In this document: positions 287 through 15,158 of the stretch, one piece after another
How the letters are laid out: each line of letters begins with the position of its first letter
Numbering within the stretch: position 1 is the first letter of the stretch
From: a virus
DNA length: 15,158 nt
Virus genome (UHGV): UHGV-1773351
Direction: 5' to 3' (one strand)
The notes under the pieces: generated by a model
Database searches by the model: none
Told to the model about the DNA's origin: nothing
What the model saw: the letters and a program-made list of their open reading frames with translations, nothing else
Program-made: the position numbers and the translations under genes

Positions 287-523
287 ATGCAGAACAATCC
301 GAACAAATGTCGAACGCTATGGGTGCGGTTATATATTTATGCCGTCCTCTGTTTGATTGTGTCACTGGTTCTGTATGTTTGGCTTTTGCCAAATATGATC
401 TCATCTAACAGCACAATACTTGTATTGTTGGGAGTCCTTCTCGCGCTCATTTACCCGGCTTTCGCAGTAGTCTTTTTTCGTGAAAAAACCAGGAAATTAA
501 TTAATGAAAAAAACGTTGATTAG
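287..523 (+). CDS. small membrane protein (78 aa, two hydrophobic helices), probable partner of the downstream SPFH lipoprotein
   Basis: ORF with GGAG 7 nt upstream of ATG 287. Two hydrophobic stretches (YIYAVLCLIVSLVLYVWLL and ILVLLGVLLALIYPAFAVVFF). 3' end overlaps the next gene by 20 nt, suggesting coupling. Confidence 0.4.
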   Translation: MQNNPNKCRTLWVRLYIYAVLCLIVSLVLYVWLLPNMISSNSTILVLLGVLLALIYPAFAVVFFREKTRKLINEKNVD

Positions 524-1331
524 TGCAGCGATTATTTTGGGTTCTTTATGTCTGACCGGATGCGATCGGGTAGAGCCAGGTAACGTAGGGATCAAAGTAA
601 ATAAGCTGGGGGATGATAAAGGTATCGGTGAAGTAGTTGGCGTTGGTCGCTACTGGACAGGCTTGAATACTGAAGTTTATATCTTCCCGACCTTTAAGCA
701 AATGAAGACATACGATGAGCCGTTCAGCTTCCAGATGAGCGACGGAACAACCATTGGTTACCACATCGGCGTAGCCTACAAGGTTGATCCAGCAAAAGTC
801 ACAACGGTATTTCAGACCTATCGCAAAGGTGTAGATGATATTACTGATACCGATCTACGCCAGAAGGTTGCAGATGCTCTGAACCGATTAGCCAGCAAAA
901 TGACCACCGACAAATTTATCGACGGTGGCAAATCTGAATTGCTTGATGCAGCCCTTAAAGACATTCAGGAAGAAATGACGCCAATCGGCATTCAGGTGAT
1001 GAGCCTCTCTTATGTAGGTAAGCCAGAATACCCGCCAACAGTTATTGACAGTATTAACGCCAAAGTCACGGCAAACCAAAAAACCCTGCAACGCGAGCAA
1101 GAGGTCAAACAACGTGAAGCAGAGGCCAACATGCTGCGCGCGGAAGCTGCCGGACAGGCTGATGCTATTCGCACAAAAGCCCAGGCCGAAGCTGATGCCA
1201 TTCGTTTACGTGGTGAAGCTCTGCGCCAGAACCCCGGTGTTATGGACTTGGAAGCGATCAACAAATGGAACGGTACATTACCGCAGTATATGACCAGTAA
1301 TACCGCTGTTCCGTTTGTTCCGGTGAAATAA
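504..1331 (+). CDS. SPFH/band-7 (HflK/C-flotillin-like) family lipoprotein
   Basis: Signal peptide with lipobox (MKKTLISAAIILGSLCLTGC). AGGAA upstream of the ATG. Central SPFH-like region followed by an Ala/Glu/Arg-rich coiled coil (EAEANMLRAEAAGQADAIRTKAQAEADAIRLRGEA). Confidence 0.75.
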   Translation: MKKTLISAAIILGSLCLTGCDRVEPGNVGIKVNKLGDDKGIGEVVGVGRYWTGLNTEVYIFPTFKQMKTYDEPFSFQMSDGTTIGYHIGVAYKVDPAKVTTVFQTYRKGVDDITDTDLRQKVADALNRLASKMTTDKFIDGGKSELLDAALKDIQEEMTPIGIQVMSLSYVGKPEYPPTVIDSINAKVTANQKTLQREQEVKQREAEANMLRAEAAGQADAIRTKAQAEADAIRLRGEALRQNPGVMDLEAINKWNGTLPQYMTSNTAVPFVPVK

Positions 1332-1358
1332 AAGCGTAAGCAAAATTGGCAGTAATCC

Positions 1359-1434
1359 GGCCCTTTAGCTCAGTGGTTAGAGCTGGCGACTCATAATCGC
1401 ACGGTCACCGGTTCAAGTCCGGTAGGGGCCACCA
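1359..1434 (+). tRNA. tRNA with CAU anticodon; overall closest to tRNA-Ile2 (lysidine type, ileX-like), not elongator or initiator tRNA-Met
   Basis: 76-nt cloverleaf folded by hand: 7-bp acceptor stem GGCCCTT/AGGGGCC (one G-U), D arm GCTC-AGTGGTTA-GAGC, anticodon loop CTCATAA (CAT at 1392-1394), T arm ACCGG-TTCAAGT-CCGGT, encoded CCA. D-loop, C4/C5 acceptor pairs and anticodon stem GGCGA match the E. coli ileX pattern as I recall it. Confidence 0.85.
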
Positions 1435-1714
1435 TATTTGGTTGTAACACGGCGTCTGGCACATGCGTCGTTAGCGGTCTGGTGACGTTAAAGGGGTAAC
1501 CTTTCCCCTAGCTCAGGCAACAAACCAGGTAGCCGGAATGTGCAAGCCCCGTTCATAGCGTCGGACTGCGGATTCACCATCTTGGCGATTCGGTGTGACA
1601 GCCGGGAAGAGTCCGGCGAATTAATCCTGATTTTCTGGTGATGACTCATATCGTTAGGAGTGATTTGAGTATGGCGATTATATCTGACATTCAGCACGCC
1701 TGGGTGGAGTGCTA

Positions 1715-3079
1715 ATGTCTGCATCCCCTCTTGAATCCATGCCAAATTCCCTTAGTGCAGAACAAGCTGTACTTGGTGGCTTAATGCTTGATAACTGCCG
1801 CTGGGATGAAGTTGCAGATCGTATAGTTGCTGATGATTTTTATACCAGTGCTCATCGTGAAATTTTCAGTGAGATGGAGAGGTTATTAAGTCATGGCAAA
1901 CCGATTGATTTGATAACACTTGCTGAAGCACTTGAACAGAACGGTAAATTAGAACGCGCCGGTGGTTTTGCGTACCTTGCGGAGATGTCAAAGAACACGC
2001 CCAGCGCGGCAAATATTTGTGCTTATGCGGATATCGTTCGTGAACGCGCGGTTGTTCGTGAAATGATTTCCGTCGCAAATGAAATAGCCGAAGCTGGATA
2101 TGCGCAGGATGGCAGGGGCAGCAATGAATTGCTGGATATGGCCGAGCGCCGCGTTTTTGAAATAGCTGAAAAACGACAAAAGAGCGGTAGTGGTCCAAAA
2201 GATATCGCCAGCATTCTCGATGCAACGGTATCTCGCATAGAAGAGTTGTTTCAGCGACCGCATGATGGTGTAACGGGGCTTGATACCGGATTTACCGATC
2301 TCAATAAGAAGACGGCAGGACTTCAGGCGTCCGATCTCATTATTGTCGCCGCCCGCCCATCGATGGGGAAGACTACGTTTGCGATGAATCTCGTCGAAAA
2401 TGCCGCAGTCCGTAACGATAAGCCCGTATTGGTTTTTAGCCTTGAGATGCCGAGCCACCAGCTGATGATGCGCTCACTGGCTTCTCTTGCACGCGTTGAT
2501 CAGACTCGTATTCGAACAGGGCAACTTAACGACGAGGATTGGGCGCGGGTTTCTGGCGCAATGGGGATTCTGTTGGACAAGCAGAATATTTTTATTGATG
2601 ACTCAAGCGCCCTGACACCTACAGAGCTTCGTTCCCGCGCTCGTCGTGTTTATAAAGAAAATGGTGGTTTGAGCATGATTATGATCGACTACCTGCAACT
2701 TATGCGCGTCCCCGAGCTGCAAGATAACCGAACGCTGGAAATTGCCGAGATTTCTCGCTCACTGAAGGCTTTGGCGAAGGAATTACAAGTACCGGTGGTG
2801 GCATTGTCACAACTTAATCGATCGCTTGAACAGCGTGCGGACAAACGACCGGTAAATTCAGATTTACGTGAATCAGGAGCAATTGAGCAGGACGCAGACC
2901 TGATCATGTTTCTGTATCGCGACGAAGTTTATCACCCGGATAGCGAAATGAAGGGCATTGCCGAGGTGATTATCGGTAAGCAACGAAATGGCCCAATTGG
3001 CACGGTGAGATTGGCTTTTAACGGCCAATACTCACGGTTTGATAACTATGCTGGTGCTGACTGGCAAGAGGATTATTAA
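1715..3079 (+). CDS. dnaB: DnaB-family replicative DNA helicase (phage-borne paralog, P1 Ban-like)
   Basis: Near-collinear similarity to E. coli DnaB over the whole length, including the Walker A segment AARPSMGKTTFAMNLVENAA and LRESGAIEQDADLIMFLYRDEVYH. ATG 1715 has GGAG 5 nt upstream; an in-frame GTG at 1709 is the ORF-track start. Confidence 0.93.
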   Translation: MSASPLESMPNSLSAEQAVLGGLMLDNCRWDEVADRIVADDFYTSAHREIFSEMERLLSHGKPIDLITLAEALEQNGKLERAGGFAYLAEMSKNTPSAANICAYADIVRERAVVREMISVANEIAEAGYAQDGRGSNELLDMAERRVFEIAEKRQKSGSGPKDIASILDATVSRIEELFQRPHDGVTGLDTGFTDLNKKTAGLQASDLIIVAARPSMGKTTFAMNLVENAAVRNDKPVLVFSLEMPSHQLMMRSLASLARVDQTRIRTGQLNDEDWARVSGAMGILLDKQNIFIDDSSALTPTELRSRARRVYKENGGLSMIMIDYLQLMRVPELQDNRTLEIAEISRSLKALAKELQVPVVALSQLNRSLEQRADKRPVNSDLRESGAIEQDADLIMFLYRDEVYHPDSEMKGIAEVIIGKQRNGPIGTVRLAFNGQYSRFDNYAGADWQEDY

Positions 3080-4077
3080 TGCAATGGAATGAGGAAAAGC
3101 CGATGAACATCCTGATCATTGGGCGAAAATTTGAAGCTATCAGTGATGTGAAAACATATACGGAAATGTGGGCTTACAACCTGGCCTGCGCCTTTAGTGA
3201 GGCTGGGGTAACATTGCAATACCATCGTCCATATTCCCCCGGCGTCGAAAGCCCGGAGGATTATGTTGAAGCTGTGTTGACTGCTGCGACCGCATGTTCT
3301 GCGAAGGCCATTTTGGCACCAGGATTGAGGTATTTTACTACGGTGCCCAGGGAAATAGGCGTGCAACTGCGTCGTCGATTCACTGGATGGGTAGCCCAGG
3401 TATACGACGGTTCTATGCTGGATTCGGCACCAGTCGATATTACTTTTACTGTCCGCGATGATACCTGGCGGTACCTGGATAATCCAGGCAGGTTAGAGCG
3501 TCATAATCGCTTTAACAAACATGTTGGATGGGCAGCGAATCAGGATCTGTTCCATCTGGAAACCAAAACAGACGATGTTCTGCGTATTTTTGTAGACCAC
3601 GCTGCATTTGATGTTAGTGGGTTTGATCACTCCTTAAGTATCCTTATGAACCTTCAGCGTCTGACCGTTCCGTATGAGGCCAGAACGTTGACCGATGACG
3701 GATTGATTACCATTGATCCGGGGAATATATCGGTAACCCCATACAGACGGACGCCGGTACCAGCAACCGAATTTGCAGCTGAATTGCGTAAGAGTGACGT
3801 GTTTATCGTTACGCATCCCGAAAGCCTTGGATTAACTGTACTTGAGGCGGCAATGTGCGGGGCGTTGGTATTAACGCCTCCCGATTGCCTTCCGCCAGAT
3901 CGCTTGGCTTTGGTGAACCATATGGTTATCAAGTCGCGGATTGATTGGGATGAGGTTATTGCTCGCGTTGATCGCGTGAAAAATGCTGAAAAGGTCCAGT
4001 GTCACACCTGGTCGGCAATTGCGGAAAAGATGCTTGAGACGTTTATCACGCAGAAACCGTCGTGCGGTAACGGATAA
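3079..4077 (+). CDS. GT-B fold (GT4-like) glycosyltransferase-like protein, in the position of P1 dbn
   Basis: ATG 3079 overlaps the helicase stop (TAATG). Alternative ATG 3103 has an ideal GAGGA 7 nt upstream and gives an N-terminus MNILIIG typical of GT-B enzymes. C-terminal motif HPESLGLTVLEAAMCGALVLTP matches the E-x7-E motif of GT4-type transferases. Confidence 0.6.
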   Translation: MQWNEEKPMNILIIGRKFEAISDVKTYTEMWAYNLACAFSEAGVTLQYHRPYSPGVESPEDYVEAVLTAATACSAKAILAPGLRYFTTVPREIGVQLRRRFTGWVAQVYDGSMLDSAPVDITFTVRDDTWRYLDNPGRLERHNRFNKHVGWAANQDLFHLETKTDDVLRIFVDHAAFDVSGFDHSLSILMNLQRLTVPYEARTLTDDGLITIDPGNISVTPYRRTPVPATEFAAELRKSDVFIVTHPESLGLTVLEAAMCGALVLTPPDCLPPDRLALVNHMVIKSRIDWDEVIARVDRVKNAEKVQCHTWSAIAEKMLETFITQKPSCGNG

Positions 4078-4100
4078 AAAATTGAACCCGTCATAACAGA

Positions 4101-4121
4101 AAAGCCCGAACGCCGGGCTTT
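4101..4121. terminator. bidirectional rho-independent terminator between convergent genes
   Basis: 8-bp stem AAAGCCCG/CGGGCTTT with loop AACGC, T-rich on both sides (TTTCTT on plus, TTTCTGTT on minus). Lies between the plus-gene stop (4077) and the minus-gene stop (4124). Confidence 0.7.
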
Positions 4122-4123
4122 TC

Positions 4124-7234
<3,111 letters not shown>

Positions 7235-8839: not shown

Positions 8840-8912
8840 AGTCAGCCTGCCAGAAATATATGATGGTGATTCTACTGCTAGTCATTTGTTGAATATTTAA
8901 CTTAATAAAAGA

Positions 8913-8929
8913 AAATTATTAGTGCAATT
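8913..8929 (-). promoter_or_regulatory. C1-operator-like 17-mer (ATTGCACTAATAATTTT on the minus strand) in the divergent control region
   Basis: 15 of 17 matches to the recalled P1 C1 operator consensus. Lies between the divergent operons starting at 8839 (minus) and 8986 (plus). Confidence 0.4.
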
Positions 8930-9233: not shown

Positions 9234-9812
9234 ATGTTGCGCTTTACTGAGGAAGAGTTTCAGGCTTTTAGTGAGCGTCGAAATAAGGGGCGGTCCAGGC
9301 CAAAAACCAAAAAGGATCCATTCTTATCGCTTGCGCCGGTAAAAGAAGTTTCTCCACATGCGAAGGCACTTGCAGCACTGGCAAAGAACCCAGACCTGCG
9401 CGACGGAAATTGCGAGCACTTCGAGCAGGTTTTCATTTTTGATTACTTCGAACGCAAGCACCCTGACATCTATGAGCTGTTGCATGCAACGCCTAACGGA
9501 GGGAAACGTTCAAAAGCAACCGCCGGGAAAATGAAGGCTGAAGGGCAGAAAAAAGGTTATCCGGACATGAGTCTCGATAAAGCATGCGGTATTTATCACG
9601 GCATGCGAATTGAGCTTAAAGAACCAAATGGTAAAGCCCCGACGAAAGAGCAGATCGCCTGGATGCGCAGGCTTAGAGAGGAAGGTTACTACGTCGTTCT
9701 TGCGTATGGTGCAGAACAAGCGATAACCGCCATCCTGGAATACATGAGCCTTAAAAAGGGTGAGGCTATTGAGCATGTATTGAACGGTGACAAGTGTTTG
9801 TACGCTACGTGA
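9234..9812 (+). CDS. VRR-NUC domain nuclease (PD-(D/E)xK superfamily)
   Basis: C-terminal region GYPDMSLDKACGIYHGMRIELKEPNGKAPTKEQIAWMRRLREEGYYVVLAYG matches the VRR-NUC pattern (Asp, then E-x-K, then a helix and beta strand). Start lies 2 nt after the previous stop. Confidence 0.7.
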   Translation: MLRFTEEEFQAFSERRNKGRSRPKTKKDPFLSLAPVKEVSPHAKALAALAKNPDLRDGNCEHFEQVFIFDYFERKHPDIYELLHATPNGGKRSKATAGKMKAEGQKKGYPDMSLDKACGIYHGMRIELKEPNGKAPTKEQIAWMRRLREEGYYVVLAYGAEQAITAILEYMSLKKGEAIEHVLNGDKCLYAT

Positions 9813-9879: not shown

Positions 9880-10035
9880 GTGTCATCCAAGGCTAATTAT
9901 GAATCGCTGGCATCGATCATGCCGCGTAATGAACAGGAAGCAGATGCTGTAGTGGACCCGGTAATCGCTGAAATGAATGCTCGCCTGGAGGCTGAATTTG
10001 CAGCTGAGAATGAACATACCACCCAGGGCGACTAG
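9880..10035 (+). CDS. small hypothetical protein (about 51 aa from GTG 9880)
   Basis: GGGAGA 7 nt upstream of GTG 9880. The ORF-track start at 9829 is a GTG with no Shine-Dalgarno in an AT-rich spacer. Confidence 0.35.
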   Translation: MSSKANYESLASIMPRNEQEADAVVDPVIAEMNARLEAEFAAENEHTTQGD

Positions 10036-10639
10036 GACTGTTTTTTGTGTCGGTAGCGGTCCGTCACTCACTCGTGAGGACTGTGCTGCTATAGAAAAAA
10101 CTGGCTGTTCAATCATCGCGGTTAACAATTCCTGGCAGATGTTCGATGACATTTATGCCTTATACGCCGGTGATTTGTCATGGTGGAAGCAATACGGATC
10201 CACCATACCGGGAGGGAGATTCCGCAAAGTGACAGCCAACCTGGCGGCGGCGAAATCATTTTCGTTGGAGTACAGGCGATATTGTGGACCGGCTGAAGGG
10301 GTTAATAGCGGCGCGCAGGCTATCAGTCTGGCGGCTGAATCAGGGGCTGAAGTAGTTGTATTAGTCGGCTATGACTGTTCTCTGCAAAACGGCCTTCATT
10401 GGCATGGAGCACACCCTCAAGCACTACGGAATCCAACGCAGGTGTCTATTTCAAAATGGCAACAGCAGTTCCTGGATACCCGCAAAAAACACGCAGATTT
10501 ACATATTTTGAATGCAAGTAGGAGCAGTGCAATTCAATGTTTCCCAAGAATAAATTTAGAGGCAGTGATCGCGTTATTATCGTCGGCAGTGGCCCAAGCG
10601 CCGCAAACTTTGTTGCGCCGCGCGGAGTGCCGATTATAG
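10010..10639 (+). CDS. GT42/DUF115-like (Cst-II sialyltransferase / Maf / MptE-like) putative CMP-sugar transferase, paralog A
   Basis: N-terminal VFCVGSGPSL, then IIAVNNSWQMFDD and NSGAQAISLAAESGAEVVVLVGYD, collinear with Cst-II motifs as I recall them. Start chosen at ATG 10010 to give the same N-terminal length as paralog B; the ORF-track start is 9977. Confidence 0.5.
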   Translation: MNIPPRATRTVFCVGSGPSLTREDCAAIEKTGCSIIAVNNSWQMFDDIYALYAGDLSWWKQYGSTIPGGRFRKVTANLAAAKSFSLEYRRYCGPAEGVNSGAQAISLAAESGAEVVVLVGYDCSLQNGLHWHGAHPQALRNPTQVSISKWQQQFLDTRKKHADLHILNASRSSAIQCFPRINLEAVIALLSSAVAQAPQTLLRRAECRL

Positions 10640-11163
10640 CGGTCAATGGGGCCATAGACTGGCTTAACCGCGCTTCTTATTTTTTCACCCTTGATCCATC
10701 GCCAGACAATATGCGGCGCGTTGGTCGTGGCCGCCGTCGCCGTGGTGTTTGTTATTGCATGGCGCTACCCGATGTTAAAGAACGTGAGGTCAGAGACGGC
10801 GTTCTGTGCTTCCGTCGTGTGGCTGAGCGCGGCACGGAGCCAAAAAATACGAATTCTCCCGAGTGGTGGGCGTGGCGCTGGTCCGCACATTTCGGCCTTT
10901 GCGAAGATGAGAATGAAATTGCCAGCGGCAATAGTGCATATGGTGCTCTGAACCTGGCTTTCCATATCGGATTCAAACATGTCGCCCTGGTGGGCGTTGA
11001 CGCTACACAAGAACCACGCGTTCACTCCGGCGGCACGCCAAAAAATCTAAGTCACCTGCCTTTGTTATTCCAGTCTGCGCGTGAACAGATTGACGTTGTT
11101 TCATGCGGGAAAATGGGAGGTATTCCGCAGATGACTCTTAAAGAATGGCTGAAGAATACATGA
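10537..11163 (+). CDS. GT42/DUF115-like putative CMP-sugar transferase, paralog B
   Basis: [21 protein letters not shown] and [24 protein letters not shown] parallel paralog A. AGGAG lies about 12 nt upstream of the ATG. Overlaps paralog A by 103 nt in another frame. Confidence 0.55.
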
Positions 11164-11837
11164 TGGCACCAACAATTTATCACCGTATCGACGGTACCAA
11201 ATACAGGAATATCTGGGTTGTTGGTGATCTGCATGGTTGCTACAACAGACTGATGTCCGAACTCCATCGTGTGGATTTTGACCCGGCGCAGGATTTACTG
11301 ATATCGGTCGGCGACCTTATCGATCGCGGTACTGAAAATGTCGAATGTCTGGAACTATTGCAGATGCCCTGGTTCAGGGCAGTGATGGGGAACCATGAGC
11401 GGCTGATGATTGATGCGTTAAGTCCAGATGGCAACGTGAATAACTGGCTAATGAATGGCGGACAATGGTTCTTCATGCTGGACACTGATCAGGAAATATT
11501 AGCTAGGGCGCTGGTGGAGCTGGTAAAGCGTCTGCCCTATATCATTGAGTTGAACACCGGGCAAGAAACTATCGTTATAGCCCATGCCGACTATCCGGAT
11601 AATGAATACCAATTCGGTAAGGAGGTGCCGCTTTTCAACGTTGTCTGGGCGCGCGAGCGTATCAGTGATTCGATGGATGATATTGGTGGCGAAATTTCGG
11701 GCGCAGATCGTTTTATCTTTGGTCACACTCCGGTGAAAAGCCCGAAGACATTCTGGAATCAGCATTATATCGATACTGGTGCCGTATTTTGCGGAAACCT
11801 GACATTGATGAAAGTGAAAGGTGATGGTGCAGCATGA
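11145..11837 (+). CDS. Ser/Thr protein phosphatase, lambda PPase (PPP) family
   Basis: Canonical PPP motifs GDLHGCY, GDLIDRG and GNHE, plus near-collinear similarity to lambda phosphatase ([12 protein letters not shown] ... [13 protein letters not shown]). ATG 11160 overlaps the upstream stop in an ATGA arrangement and is an equally plausible start. Confidence 0.85.
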
Positions 11838-12535
11838 AGATTGCTTTAGTTCTTCGCTCTGGTGGTGACTATAACGCTTCCGATGTGCAGTGGCTGGTTA
11901 ATCAACTGCCAAAAGGCTATGAAATTATTTGCCTGACAGACCTGAAGCGTTTACATGTACCTGGCGTCAAAGTTGTCCCATTGATCAACCAGTGGCAAAA
12001 GTGCCGTGGCTGGTGGGCGAAAATCGAGTTGTTCCGACCGGATATAACCGATGATCTGTTCTATCTGGATTTGGACACGGTTATTGCCGGTGATATACGC
12101 CCAATCCTTGAGAATCCACCAACCAGCTTCACCATGCTTAGGGATTTTTACCATCCACAATATCGTGGTAGCGGTGCCCTGTGGATACCAAATAGTGTAA
12201 AAGCGCATATCTGGAGTTCATTCTGGCAAGATCCGGAAGGTTGGATTGCTCGTTGTGTTACTACTGAATGCTGGGGTGATCAGGGGTTTTTGCGGAAGGT
12301 TATGGGTGATGATACACCAGCATTTCAGGATCTGTATCCGGGATGGTTTGTAAGTTACAAGGCCGATGTTGTGGAACCTGGTTCGAAATATGCGAGCGCG
12401 CGTTACTCCAGGGGGAATGGGGCATTACCAAAAGACTGCCGAATAATCTTTTTCCACGGCAAACCGCGACCTCGCGAAGTGTCAGAGGATTGGCTTCCCC
12501 TTATTAGCTCGTTTTTTGAGCGAGAATCAGAATAA
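11834..12535 (+). CDS. hypothetical protein, possible GT-A fold nucleotide-sugar transferase (DxD-like motif)
   Basis: ATG overlaps the phosphatase stop (ATGA). The motif [19 protein letters not shown] resembles the DxD region of GT-A transferases; this is a motif-level guess only. Confidence 0.55.
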
Positions 12536-14171: not shown

Positions 14172-14678
14172 TTGAGTATTTTCAATAAACATGCACACCA
14201 GGAACGTCCGTATATCGTCATAGTCGATATTGATGGAACAATATCAAAGGCAACTGAAGACAGACTGCATTTGCTTCCGCCACCAGGTAAAGGTGCATTA
14301 ACAAAGGACTGGAACGAGTTTAATCTCGCCTGTGACACCGATACTCCCATCACTCCAGTTATTGATATGGTGCGCCAGTTATTTAACGTTTACACGGTCT
14401 GGTTTGTAACCGGGCGCTGTGAGATCGCAAGGGATAAAACACGAGCCTGGCTGCGGAAGTACGTAACAAACGGGGCTGAGCCTTTGCTATCTATGCGTCC
14501 TGCCACCGATGACAGAAATGACGGCCCAGCAAAGATTGATCTCCTTAAGAAAATTGGTCTAAGTAAAATCGCGTTCGCGCTGGAAGATAAGATTGAAGTG
14601 GCGCGTGTTTTCAGGAGGCACGGCGTGCTTACGTTAATGGTCAGGGAGTATGAAAATGCGCTTCTTCACCAACAATAA
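14172..14678 (+). CDS. HAD-superfamily phosphatase (DxDGT motif; resembles polynucleotide 3'-phosphatase / nucleotidase-type domains)
   Basis: TTG start with a strong GAGGAGG 5 nt upstream. Motif I IVIVDIDGT and motif II-like WFVTGRCE. Confidence 0.7.
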   Translation: MSIFNKHAHQERPYIVIVDIDGTISKATEDRLHLLPPPGKGALTKDWNEFNLACDTDTPITPVIDMVRQLFNVYTVWFVTGRCEIARDKTRAWLRKYVTNGAEPLLSMRPATDDRNDGPAKIDLLKKIGLSKIAFALEDKIEVARVFRRHGVLTLMVREYENALLHQQ

Positions 14679-14863: not shown

Positions 14864-14942
14864 GGGGAGTATATTAGCCATTTGGAACCCCACGGTCTCT
14901 TGCGGGTTTAATTAAGAACCCGCAAGAAAAACACGAATTGGG

Positions 14943-15158
14943 CTATATTTTTCCGCCTACGCCTTTAAACTTCTCAATAAACGAGACGATTTTCTGGAAA
15001 ACTGCCTGTTTTTTCTTTTTATATTGCGGATTCAACGGACTAAGTTTTGGTAATGTTTCGTTTAATTCTGTGCCATTTTCGGTGGCATATTCGCGTTTTA
15101 AAGACGTGCGAATATAGCGTTTTGCTGCATCTTCATTGAGATTTTCTTCTTTTATCAA
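14943..15158 (-). CDS. hypothetical protein, C-terminal part only (gene starts beyond the window end)
   Basis: Minus-strand ORF open to the window edge, stop at complement of 14943-14945. The M at the edge in the ORF track is a TTG artifact. Confidence 0.4.

Follow-up and report, generated by a model that had tools for sequence, protein, structure and literature searches.

The classic transducing phage P1 carries ban and dbn, two textbook genes that stand one behind the other. P1 Ban can substitute for the host DnaB helicase, as found by classical genetics. In the 2004 annotation of the P1 genome, Dbn was labelled 'function unknown, possible glycosyltransferase' (GenBank AF234172), and its ortholog in phage P7 was named glt, 'putative glycosyltransferase' (AF503408); Dbn has been a predicted glycosyltransferase for about 20 years, and the pair as such is already known. 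The same pair occurs in a stretch of 15,158 nucleotides (nt) of the virus genome UHGV-1773351, the whole of which is referred to here as the window. It is argued below that ban-dbn is a P1-family gene pair in which Dbn is probably a functional partner of the enzymes PmgO, PmgP and PmgQ, and not of the helicase. What this reading would add is that PmgO, PmgP and PmgQ form a module, met repeatedly in late or structural operons across many unrelated phages that infect Gram-negative bacteria, and that Dbn is its fourth member, split off in P1.

By megablast against GenBank phages, the window is 98.4% identical to Escherichia phage RCS47 across 98% of its length and 98.2-98.3% identical in nucleotides to several P1 records, the 98% identity to RCS47 and P1 extending over 14.9 kb. 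Its genes follow one another as at about map units 70-85 of P1: (upl), cargo, tRNA, ban, dbn, a minus-strand tail and baseplate block 5-6-24-7-25-26, then pmgL-M-N-O-P, ppp, pmgQ, pmgR, pmgS and pap. Nucleotide identity and gene order show the window to be from a P1-family (Punavirus) phage-plasmid. The pair itself comprises the following features.

1715..3079, plus strand: ban, DnaB-family replicative helicase, from ATG 1715 to TAA 3079 (open reading frame, ORF, 1709/1715..3079)

3079..4077, plus strand: dbn as annotated in P1, 332 amino acids (aa), a GT4-like glycosyltransferase of GT-B fold; its ATG overlaps the TAA of ban by one base (TAATG)

3103..4077, plus strand: probable true frame of dbn, starting at Met9, with a GAGGA Shine-Dalgarno sequence at 3091-3095

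3820..3873, plus strand: EX7E segment of Dbn, motif ESLGLTVLEAAMCGALVL, residues 248-265, with E248 and E256 plus H246, G251 and G261; a GT4-type donor-binding signature

The helicase is identical to P1 Ban at 452 of 454 aa (99.6%) and 78% identical to DnaB of E. coli K-12. It matches the Pfam domains DnaB_C (E 1e-107, 359.7 bits) and DnaB (2.8e-35, 120.9 bits) and passes TIGR00665 with 571.6 bits against a cut-off of 385; with 864 against 898 it remains under the cut-off of the enterobacterial chromosomal DnaB equivalog, as expected of a phage paralog. Its flanking genes also match those of P1. From this similarity and synteny the gene is identified as P1 Ban itself, a phage DnaB-type replicative helicase. 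A first-pass annotation of the window had described a DnaB paralog about as near to the host protein as P1 Ban is; the family was correctly recognized, but the protein is Ban and not a new paralog. The same annotation had suggested comparing the downstream product with P1 Dbn, and 322 of its 332 residues proved identical (97%, ten substitutions), which makes it Dbn. The pair is therefore not a new one but that annotated in AF234172, and as ban and glt in P7; the RCS47 copy of Dbn is labelled 'glycosyltransferase family 4 protein' in RefSeq.

The three proposed partners are encoded in the second half of the window, in a row that a phosphatase gene interrupts.

9977..10639, plus strand: pmgO, a putative CMP-ulosonic-acid transferase, WaaZ/Cst-II-like (MptE-like fold), of the phage 'O clade' (phrog_4603, 4e-74; weak Pfam MptE-like match)

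10537..11163, plus strand: pmgP, a paralog of pmgO, of the phage 'P clade' (profile, motif and tree evidence)

11145..11837, plus strand: ppp, not a glycosyltransferase gene but that of a lambda-type Ser/Thr phosphatase (Pfam Metallophos, 2e-16)

11834..12535, plus strand: pmgQ, a GT8-like glycosyltransferase of GT-A fold with an invariant DxD (D79-L-D81) (phrog_1962, 'glycosyltransferase')

The partnership is suggested by the gene contexts of distant Dbn homologs, which were collected by exact-protein look-ups, scans of metagenomes and genomes, and the GenBank phage set, and which comprise 14 non-P1 contexts. Two alignments used to scan IMG/VR brought up hardly anything but P1 clones, and a scan of genome contigs returned three loci. 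In 12 of the 14 contexts the fetched flank includes a gene of the WaaZ/Cst-II-like O/P family, which in most of them is adjacent to the Dbn-like gene. Contiguous O-P-Dbn-Q-type cassettes were found on three non-P1 phage backbones. A 46-kb contig with lambda-type terminase, gpW and portal genes (L004) has the order PmgO-like, PmgP-like, a 189-aa ORF, Dbn-like and PmgQ-like; another (L005) has PmgP-like, Dbn-like, PmgQ-like and PmgO-like; and the cultured 111-kb coliphage EP_H11, as well as IME392, has overlapping O-like, P-like, Dbn-like and Q-like genes. On a distant P1-like Citrobacter plasmid (L003), dbn follows pmgP-Q-R-S at a distance of a few kb and has no helicase gene next to it. In P1 the cassette is split, dbn being 6-8 kb from pmgO-Q, and ppp fills the place between P and Q that is taken by Dbn in the uninterrupted cassettes.

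In bacterial genomes the Dbn-like gene comes after a WaaZ/MptE-like gene within polysaccharide loci. In Brucella pseudogrignonensis (L087) the series consists of Wza-like, Wzz-like, ABC-2 permease, ABC ATPase, a 734-aa glycosyltransferase (GT), a 322-aa GT4-like protein, MptE-like and Dbn-like; a common core of GT, GT4-like, MptE-like and Dbn-like genes is shared by L208, L210 and L213. L090 holds a Poly_export gene and L093 a hexapeptide acyltransferase gene, and L221 combines GT25, DXD-GT, PmgQ-like, Dbn-like and WaaZ-like genes with three sulfotransferase and two methyltransferase genes. From these neighbourhoods, the conserved partners of Dbn are read as PmgO, PmgP and PmgQ, not Ban. Members of the Dbn family are also found fused to GT92 (L089, 2999-4528), to an S-adenosylmethionine (SAM) methyltransferase (P0109) and to a second GT1 domain (P0099), which indicates candidate multi-step glycan tailoring enzymes in bacteria. 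A fusion to an MptE-like domain was sought among family members of 520-630 aa and none was found, methyltransferase or second GT1 domains being present instead; this result is uninformative on the link between Dbn and WaaZ.

The first-pass annotation had proposed that the helicase and the glycosyltransferase are coupled. Within the P1 lineage the two genes do occur together in 200 of 203 fetched P1-type loci, a count that is not de-duplicated, and dbn is probably co-transcribed with ban, since a promoter and terminator consensus scan of 1300-4300 gave nothing above chance between them or elsewhere in that interval; this carries no functional implication. The annotated 'P2dbn' is a single 9/12 match in the same scan, where 3.9 such matches are expected by chance. 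In 25 of about 200 P1-type loci, however, an insert of some 300 bp with a 101-aa ORF separates ban from dbn, and in this sub-lineage dbn starts at the ATG equivalent to Met9 (window 3103) behind an AAGGAG of its own. The inserted ORF begins LMQRKLTKRNKNW and was seen at 7708-8013 of L172, and also in L096, L209 and L220. In Cronobacter phage JK004, a P1 relative, the Ban ortholog (82.6%) is followed by five small ORFs, and no Dbn was found throughout JK004, although its PmgQ is present at 75%. Outside P1, a DnaB gene is near Dbn in only one of the 14 contexts. That metagenomic bacterial contig (L213, 8001-10767) carries a Dbn-like gene (31% identity) directly before a chromosomal dnaB (46% identical to Ban). 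It was rejected as a second case of coupling because the dnaB is chromosomal, lies beside leucine-biosynthesis genes and has the reverse order to P1; this adjacency, the sole other one seen, is probably coincidental.

The gene upstream of the pair is variable too. The slot before the tRNA and ban is occupied by an SPFH/Band-7 gene in the window and in RCS47, as against tciA/tciB/tciC (TerB-like) in reference P1, and the SPFH version lies inside the fetched flank in 69 of the 203 P1-type loci.

504-1331, plus strand: SPFH/Band-7 protein, 275 aa (Pfam Band_7, E 1e-30), upstream of the tRNA and ban

1359..1434, plus strand: tRNA with CAU anticodon, upstream of ban (tRNA-Met by ARAGORN and in RCS47; trnI, tRNA-Ile2 (CAT), in the P1 record)

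The tRNA is a single gene, and its identity as Ile2 (lysidine-type) or Met hinges on a base modification that cannot be read from sequence. The SPFH/Band-7 gene is labelled 'putative serine protease' in RCS47.

Because of the inserted ORF, JK004, the non-P1 contexts, the Met9 start and the variable upstream gene, the adjacency of ban and dbn is considered positional only: comparison of the loci marks the neighbourhood of ban as a cargo hot spot, and the slot downstream of it as one for variable cargo and not as a sign of functional coupling. The proposed link is confined to the P1 lineage, where it is broken by the inserted ORF and in JK004, and outside P1 a linkage to PmgO/P/Q-type genes takes its place.

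The same data bear on a role of dbn in replication, in which its product would glycosylate the phage DNA, as the alpha- and beta-glucosyltransferases of T4 do, or the helicase or its loader. Adjacency to ban gave rise to this idea, but the overlapping start is probably not real, Met9 with its own Shine-Dalgarno sequence being likely; an extra ORF lies between the genes in one P1 sub-lineage; JK004 has ban without dbn; and 13 of the 14 non-P1 contexts are without DnaB. The window encodes no hydroxymethyl-pyrimidine pathway, and T4 AGT is no closer to Dbn than dozens of other enzymes of GT-B fold are. Common restriction enzymes cut P1 DNA, which is ordinary and of Dam/Dcm type; this was counted against DNA glycosylation. 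For the replication part of the deletion test that the first-pass annotation had suggested, a published dbn deletion is already available, and it has no plaquing or antirestriction defect (PMC9024508). A role in replication, DNA glycosylation included, is extremely improbable, and comparison of the contexts has already largely refuted it.

All divergent Dbn homologs begin at the position of Met9. Together with the starts in the sub-lineage that carries the inserted ORF, this suggests that annotation from 3079 includes 8 codons too many and that translation of dbn probably begins at ATG 3103 rather than at the overlapping ATG. In P7, Glt is annotated as even shorter than Dbn starting from Met9.

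The Dbn family comprises 377 representative clusters at 50% identity. The GT4-type motif noticed by the first-pass annotation in the 3079-4077 product is indeed there, ESLGLTVLEAAMCGALVL at residues 248-265, with an intact EX7E: all of 43 diverse members of the family have E248-x7-E256, and the segment aligns with the EX7E of PimA (ESFG...EAMAAG segment). Dbn has the two Rossmann-like domains of the GT-B fold, so that the prediction of a glycosyltransferase fold, whose absence would have spoken against the first reading, holds. Dbn is a predicted divergent GT4-like glycosyltransferase, and its GT-B fold is confirmed. Its conservation is 96-100% across about 200 P1-type loci, where it is intact and retains every family-invariant residue. 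A few family members pass the Pfam profile Glycos_transf_1 (29.9 and 28.4 bits). The Pfam scan of Dbn gave no N-terminal Glyco_transf_4 match and the NCBIfam scan none; a PDB sequence search with Dbn alone returned nothing significant, and a PDB search with the family profile gave a match limited to the EX7E segment. WaaS, encoded next to waaZ in E. coli, was also considered as a counterpart of Dbn, and this was ruled out by an hhalign probability of 0.4%.

PmgO and PmgP are related to transferases of ulosonic acids. Their profile matches E. coli WaaZ (66 bits by hmmsearch; hhalign 97.5%, E 5e-12) and, in PDB, Cst-II and Cst-I (1ro7/2drj E 5e-6; range 5e-6 to 1e-4), followed by MptE and Maf. 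The family-invariant GPS, N, D and GxD motifs are kept in both proteins. Their scores against Pfam MptE-like, 23.4 bits for PmgO and 20.9 for PmgP, are under the gathering score of 34.6; O/P homologs beside distant Dbn genes carry precomputed MptE-like and WaaZ_KDO_III matches. In a distance tree a bacterial WaaZ clade stands apart from two phage clades, O and P, and each phage cassette has one gene of each, which implies non-redundant roles. To our knowledge, all characterised relatives of the WaaZ/Cst/Maf type use CMP-activated ulosonic acids, and CMP-Kdo is the only CMP-ulosonic acid we know to be made by E. coli K-12. Given the homology to WaaZ and Cst-II and the exclusively Gram-negative hosts of cultured phages with homologs, PmgO and PmgP most likely use CMP-Kdo of the host. 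The pmgO and pmgP genes share 103 nt, read in different frames, which in PmgO encode the non-conserved C-terminal tail, and the O/P pair overlaps in L004 and EP_H11 as well. One member of the pair is without GenBank annotation in EP_H11 (L231, 6400-7035) and in phage phiNP (L233, 5989-6591).

PmgQ has 135 homolog clusters, in which D-L-D is invariant. Its AlphaFold2 (AF2) model (pLDDT 94.8) has a GT-A fold, and the best Foldseek matches are Skp1 alpha-GalT, glycogenin, LgtC and GlyE, with E values from 1e-7 to 1e-8; Pfam, Glyco_transf_8 included, and NCBIfam gave no match, PHROG 1962 being the only one. The model predicts that PmgQ is a GT8-like, retaining-type hexosyltransferase of GT-A fold. 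With Dbn, the window, like P1, encodes four putative glycosyltransferases (Dbn, PmgO, PmgP and PmgQ), the upper figure of the three or possibly four sugar transferases expected at first. The transferases that had been placed at 10010-12535 are accordingly PmgO, PmgP and PmgQ, whereas the ORF at 11145-11837, in their midst, encodes the phosphatase Ppp.

The pmg genes are regulated as late genes in P1, and the elements concerned are conserved in the window.

8869..8897, no single strand: divergent late promoters LP26/LPpmgL (P1 annotation), 28/29 identical to P1; LPpmgL heads the pmgL-pmgQ operon

8912..8928, minus strand: operator O26 of the C1 repressor, identical to P1

9819..9835, minus strand: C1 operator Oppp, named Op(hdm) in P7, just upstream of pmgN-pmgO, 16/17 identical to P1

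A scan with the C1 operator consensus gave 4 matches, with 0.07 expected; the late promoter and the C1 operators of the pmgL-pmgQ operon are all conserved. The ban-dbn genes belong to a C1-repressed operon as well (P1 annotation). Tail and baseplate genes neighbour the pmg operon in P1 and the window, dbn itself being in the ban operon, and the annotators of P7 named pmg genes hdmA-D, for 'head morphogenesis'. In other phages the module is similarly placed. Three HK97-type siphophage contigs (L226-L228) have divergent PmgQ homologs with head-closure/connector genes on one side and gp10-like, tail-completion and tail-tube genes on the other; O- and P-type genes flank them, and a methyltransferase gene is often a further neighbour. 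Pseudomonas phage D3 has an O-type gene (orf6.5/orf7) directly after the major head protein gene, with a methyltransferase gene a few genes downstream, and the lambdoid Citrobacter phage phiNP has an O-P-Q trio between Rz and terS, on the late transcript. Homologs of PmgO occur in 73 GenBank phage records, lytic jumbo phages included, and every listed host is Gram-negative.

The occurrence of the trio in late or structural operons of unrelated phages suggests glycosylation of virion proteins. Maf enzymes, which have the MptE-like fold, O-glycosylate flagellin with CMP-nonulosonic acids. In mycobacteriophages, capsid and tail-tube proteins are reported to be glycosylated by tandem glycosyltransferases together with an O-methyltransferase, none of which is needed to form plaques (PMC11600133, PMC11256854, citing Freeman 2023). 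The embedding among head and tail genes in several lineages, the Maf-type precedent of protein O-glycosylation and that of the mycobacteriophages favour virion structural proteins as the acceptor, a tentative choice whose chance is put somewhat below even. During lytic growth, the four cytoplasmic enzymes would assemble a short glycan: PmgO and PmgP would add Kdo-type residues from CMP-Kdo, and PmgQ and Dbn would extend the product with NDP-hexoses. The acceptor would be reached in the cytoplasm, and no dedicated exporter would be needed; the module has neither exporter genes nor genes for nucleotide-sugar synthesis. We infer the donor sugars, the acceptor and the joint action of P1 genes that are now separated. 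The full proposal, that P1, D3-like, lambdoid and HK97-like phages with PmgO/P/Q, with or without Dbn, draw on host CMP-Kdo to attach a short glycan containing Kdo to the proteins of their own virions, with Dbn as an optional fourth, extending enzyme, is doubtful as it stands.

The homology of PmgO and PmgP to WaaZ may be read differently. The four enzymes could remodel the lipid A-core of the host lipopolysaccharide (LPS) at the cytoplasmic face of the inner membrane, for example by attaching, like WaaZ, a further Kdo and, after it, hexoses. The terminal glucose of the outer core, which P1 uses as receptor, would be altered or cut off in this way, resulting in superinfection exclusion or in progeny being spared from binding to debris. 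GT8 and GT4 are families of LPS core enzymes, and the bacterial homologs lie within polysaccharide loci. On the other hand, the late promoter and C1 operators of pmgL-Q and the C1 repression of ban-dbn should keep the genes off in lysogens, where masking of the receptor matters most, and little of the outer membrane consists of LPS newly made late in lytic growth. A position between head-completion and tail genes, as in phages of the HK97 and D3 types, is atypical for conversion genes, strictly lytic jumbo phages carry homologs, and the tree separates the O and P clades of phages from that of bacterial WaaZ. Remodelling of LPS is the main alternative, though unlikely on this balance.

Several points weigh against joint glycosylation of virion proteins by Dbn and the Pmg enzymes. 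In P1, dbn (in the ban operon) and pmgO-Q are in separate transcription units, and their co-expression so far is a matter of inference. Bacterial Dbn homologs occur in ABC-transporter polysaccharide loci, which means that the family can act on lipid-linked glycans and favours the LPS alternative. The interval between lysis and terminase genes of lambdoid phages is a classic site of lysogenic-conversion morons. Dbn itself reaches 25.0 bits against the gathering score of 26.4 of Pfam Glycos_transf_1 (PF00534), over residues 229-315 only, and where the C-terminal domain begins, GT4 enzymes usually show G-R/K...K-G but the Dbn family an invariant D173-H174 ('FVDHxxF'); with Asp-His in place of the usual Arg/Lys, the donor chemistry could be atypical. 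No biochemical or proteomic sign was found that these genes add glycans to the virions or DNA of P1 or to the LPS of cells infected by it, and the P1 virion proteome paper is silent either way. Nor does a phenotype join the four genes, single deletions of dbn, pmgO, pmgP and pmgQ being without plaquing or antirestriction defect on K-12 hosts and the genes non-essential under CRISPR interference (CRISPRi).

These genetic data are published. P1CMclr100 shows no plaquing or antirestriction defect when dbn, pmgO, pmgP, pmgQ, ppp or pap is deleted in frame (PMC9024508), and in a CRISPRi screen ban, dbn, pmgO, pmgP and pmgQ were all non-essential for P1 (PMC10695390). A literature search for the function of a PmgO/P/Q-type module found no functional study. 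The lack of a phenotype for any single deletion agrees with a third alternative, in which Dbn and PmgO/P/Q glycosylate some other cytoplasmic target (a host protein during takeover, or a small molecule or defence signal), or in which P1 dbn is a decaying remnant. GT4 domains do occur in conflict systems, a neighbour of the Dbn homolog in B. pseudogrignonensis having a weak match to Pfam 'GT4-conflict', and the neighbourhood of ban is a cargo hot spot, as seen from SPFH in the window and tciABC in P1. However, none of the four proteins was matched to a defence system by PADLOC, the conservation of an intact Dbn throughout the P1-type loci is not that of a remnant, and the combination in relatives of up to four glycosyltransferases with methyl- and sulfotransferases suggests the building of an oligosaccharide and not a single regulatory glycosylation. 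Another target, or decay, is quite improbable.

Other genes of the window gave further observations. The product of pap (14172-14678, plus strand), labelled 'P1 acid phosphatase', has its best Pfam match to the HAD_PNKP phosphatase domain (E 4e-12) and not to acid phosphatases; this match to the HAD domain of polynucleotide kinase-phosphatase hints at a role as a nucleic-acid 3'-phosphatase. PmgM (9234-9812, plus strand), 'putative morphogenetic', has a weak match to the VRR-NUC nuclease domain, with 21.2 bits just below the cut-off of 23.8. The baseplate or needle protein gp5 (4124-4720, minus strand) differs from P1 gp5 by a 12-aa indel (198 versus 210 aa) and is 91-94% identical to it, as against 98-100% for the neighbouring genes. 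The final 290 nt or so of the window (about 14868-15158) are without a match to P1 or RCS47, the matches stopping at 14867.

Should the preferred reading, virion glycosylation by PmgO, PmgP, PmgQ and Dbn, be true, the 'pmg/hdm' genes would be virion-glycosylation genes and a Gram-negative counterpart of the mycobacteriophage systems, and an overlooked post-translational modification would exist in the classic transducing phage P1. Phage virion glycosylation would then extend beyond the actinobacteriophages, which bears on immune recognition in phage therapy and on P1-based delivery tools. Since deletion mutants of all four P1 genes exist (PMC9024508), the target of the glycan is directly testable.

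Compared with the described systems, the locus agrees with ban-dbn of P1 (AF234172) and ban-glt of P7 (AF503408) in genes, order and neighbours, and differs in the upstream cargo, SPFH in place of tciA/B/C. With the retaining GT-B enzymes of CAZy family GT4 (PimA/PimB', BshA, GlgM, WaaG/WaaB), Dbn shares sequence likeness over only about 40 residues. PmgO and PmgP have profile homology to, and the GPS/N/D/GxD motifs in common with, the LPS KdoIII transferase WaaZ of E. coli, Cst-I and Cst-II of Campylobacter (GT42) and Maf/MptE-like proteins, and differ from WaaZ and Cst in being shorter (about 200 aa) and in forming phage clades apart from the bacterial WaaZ clade. The virion glycosylation cassettes reported for mycobacteriophages (Che8, Corndog/cluster O) likewise have tandem glycosyltransferase genes, often with a methyltransferase gene, in or next to the structural or late operon, and are dispensable for plaques. 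The P1-type module differs from them in that its hosts are Gram-negative, its enzymes are of other families (WaaZ/Cst-like, GT8-like and GT4-like), and its P1 genes are divided between two operons.

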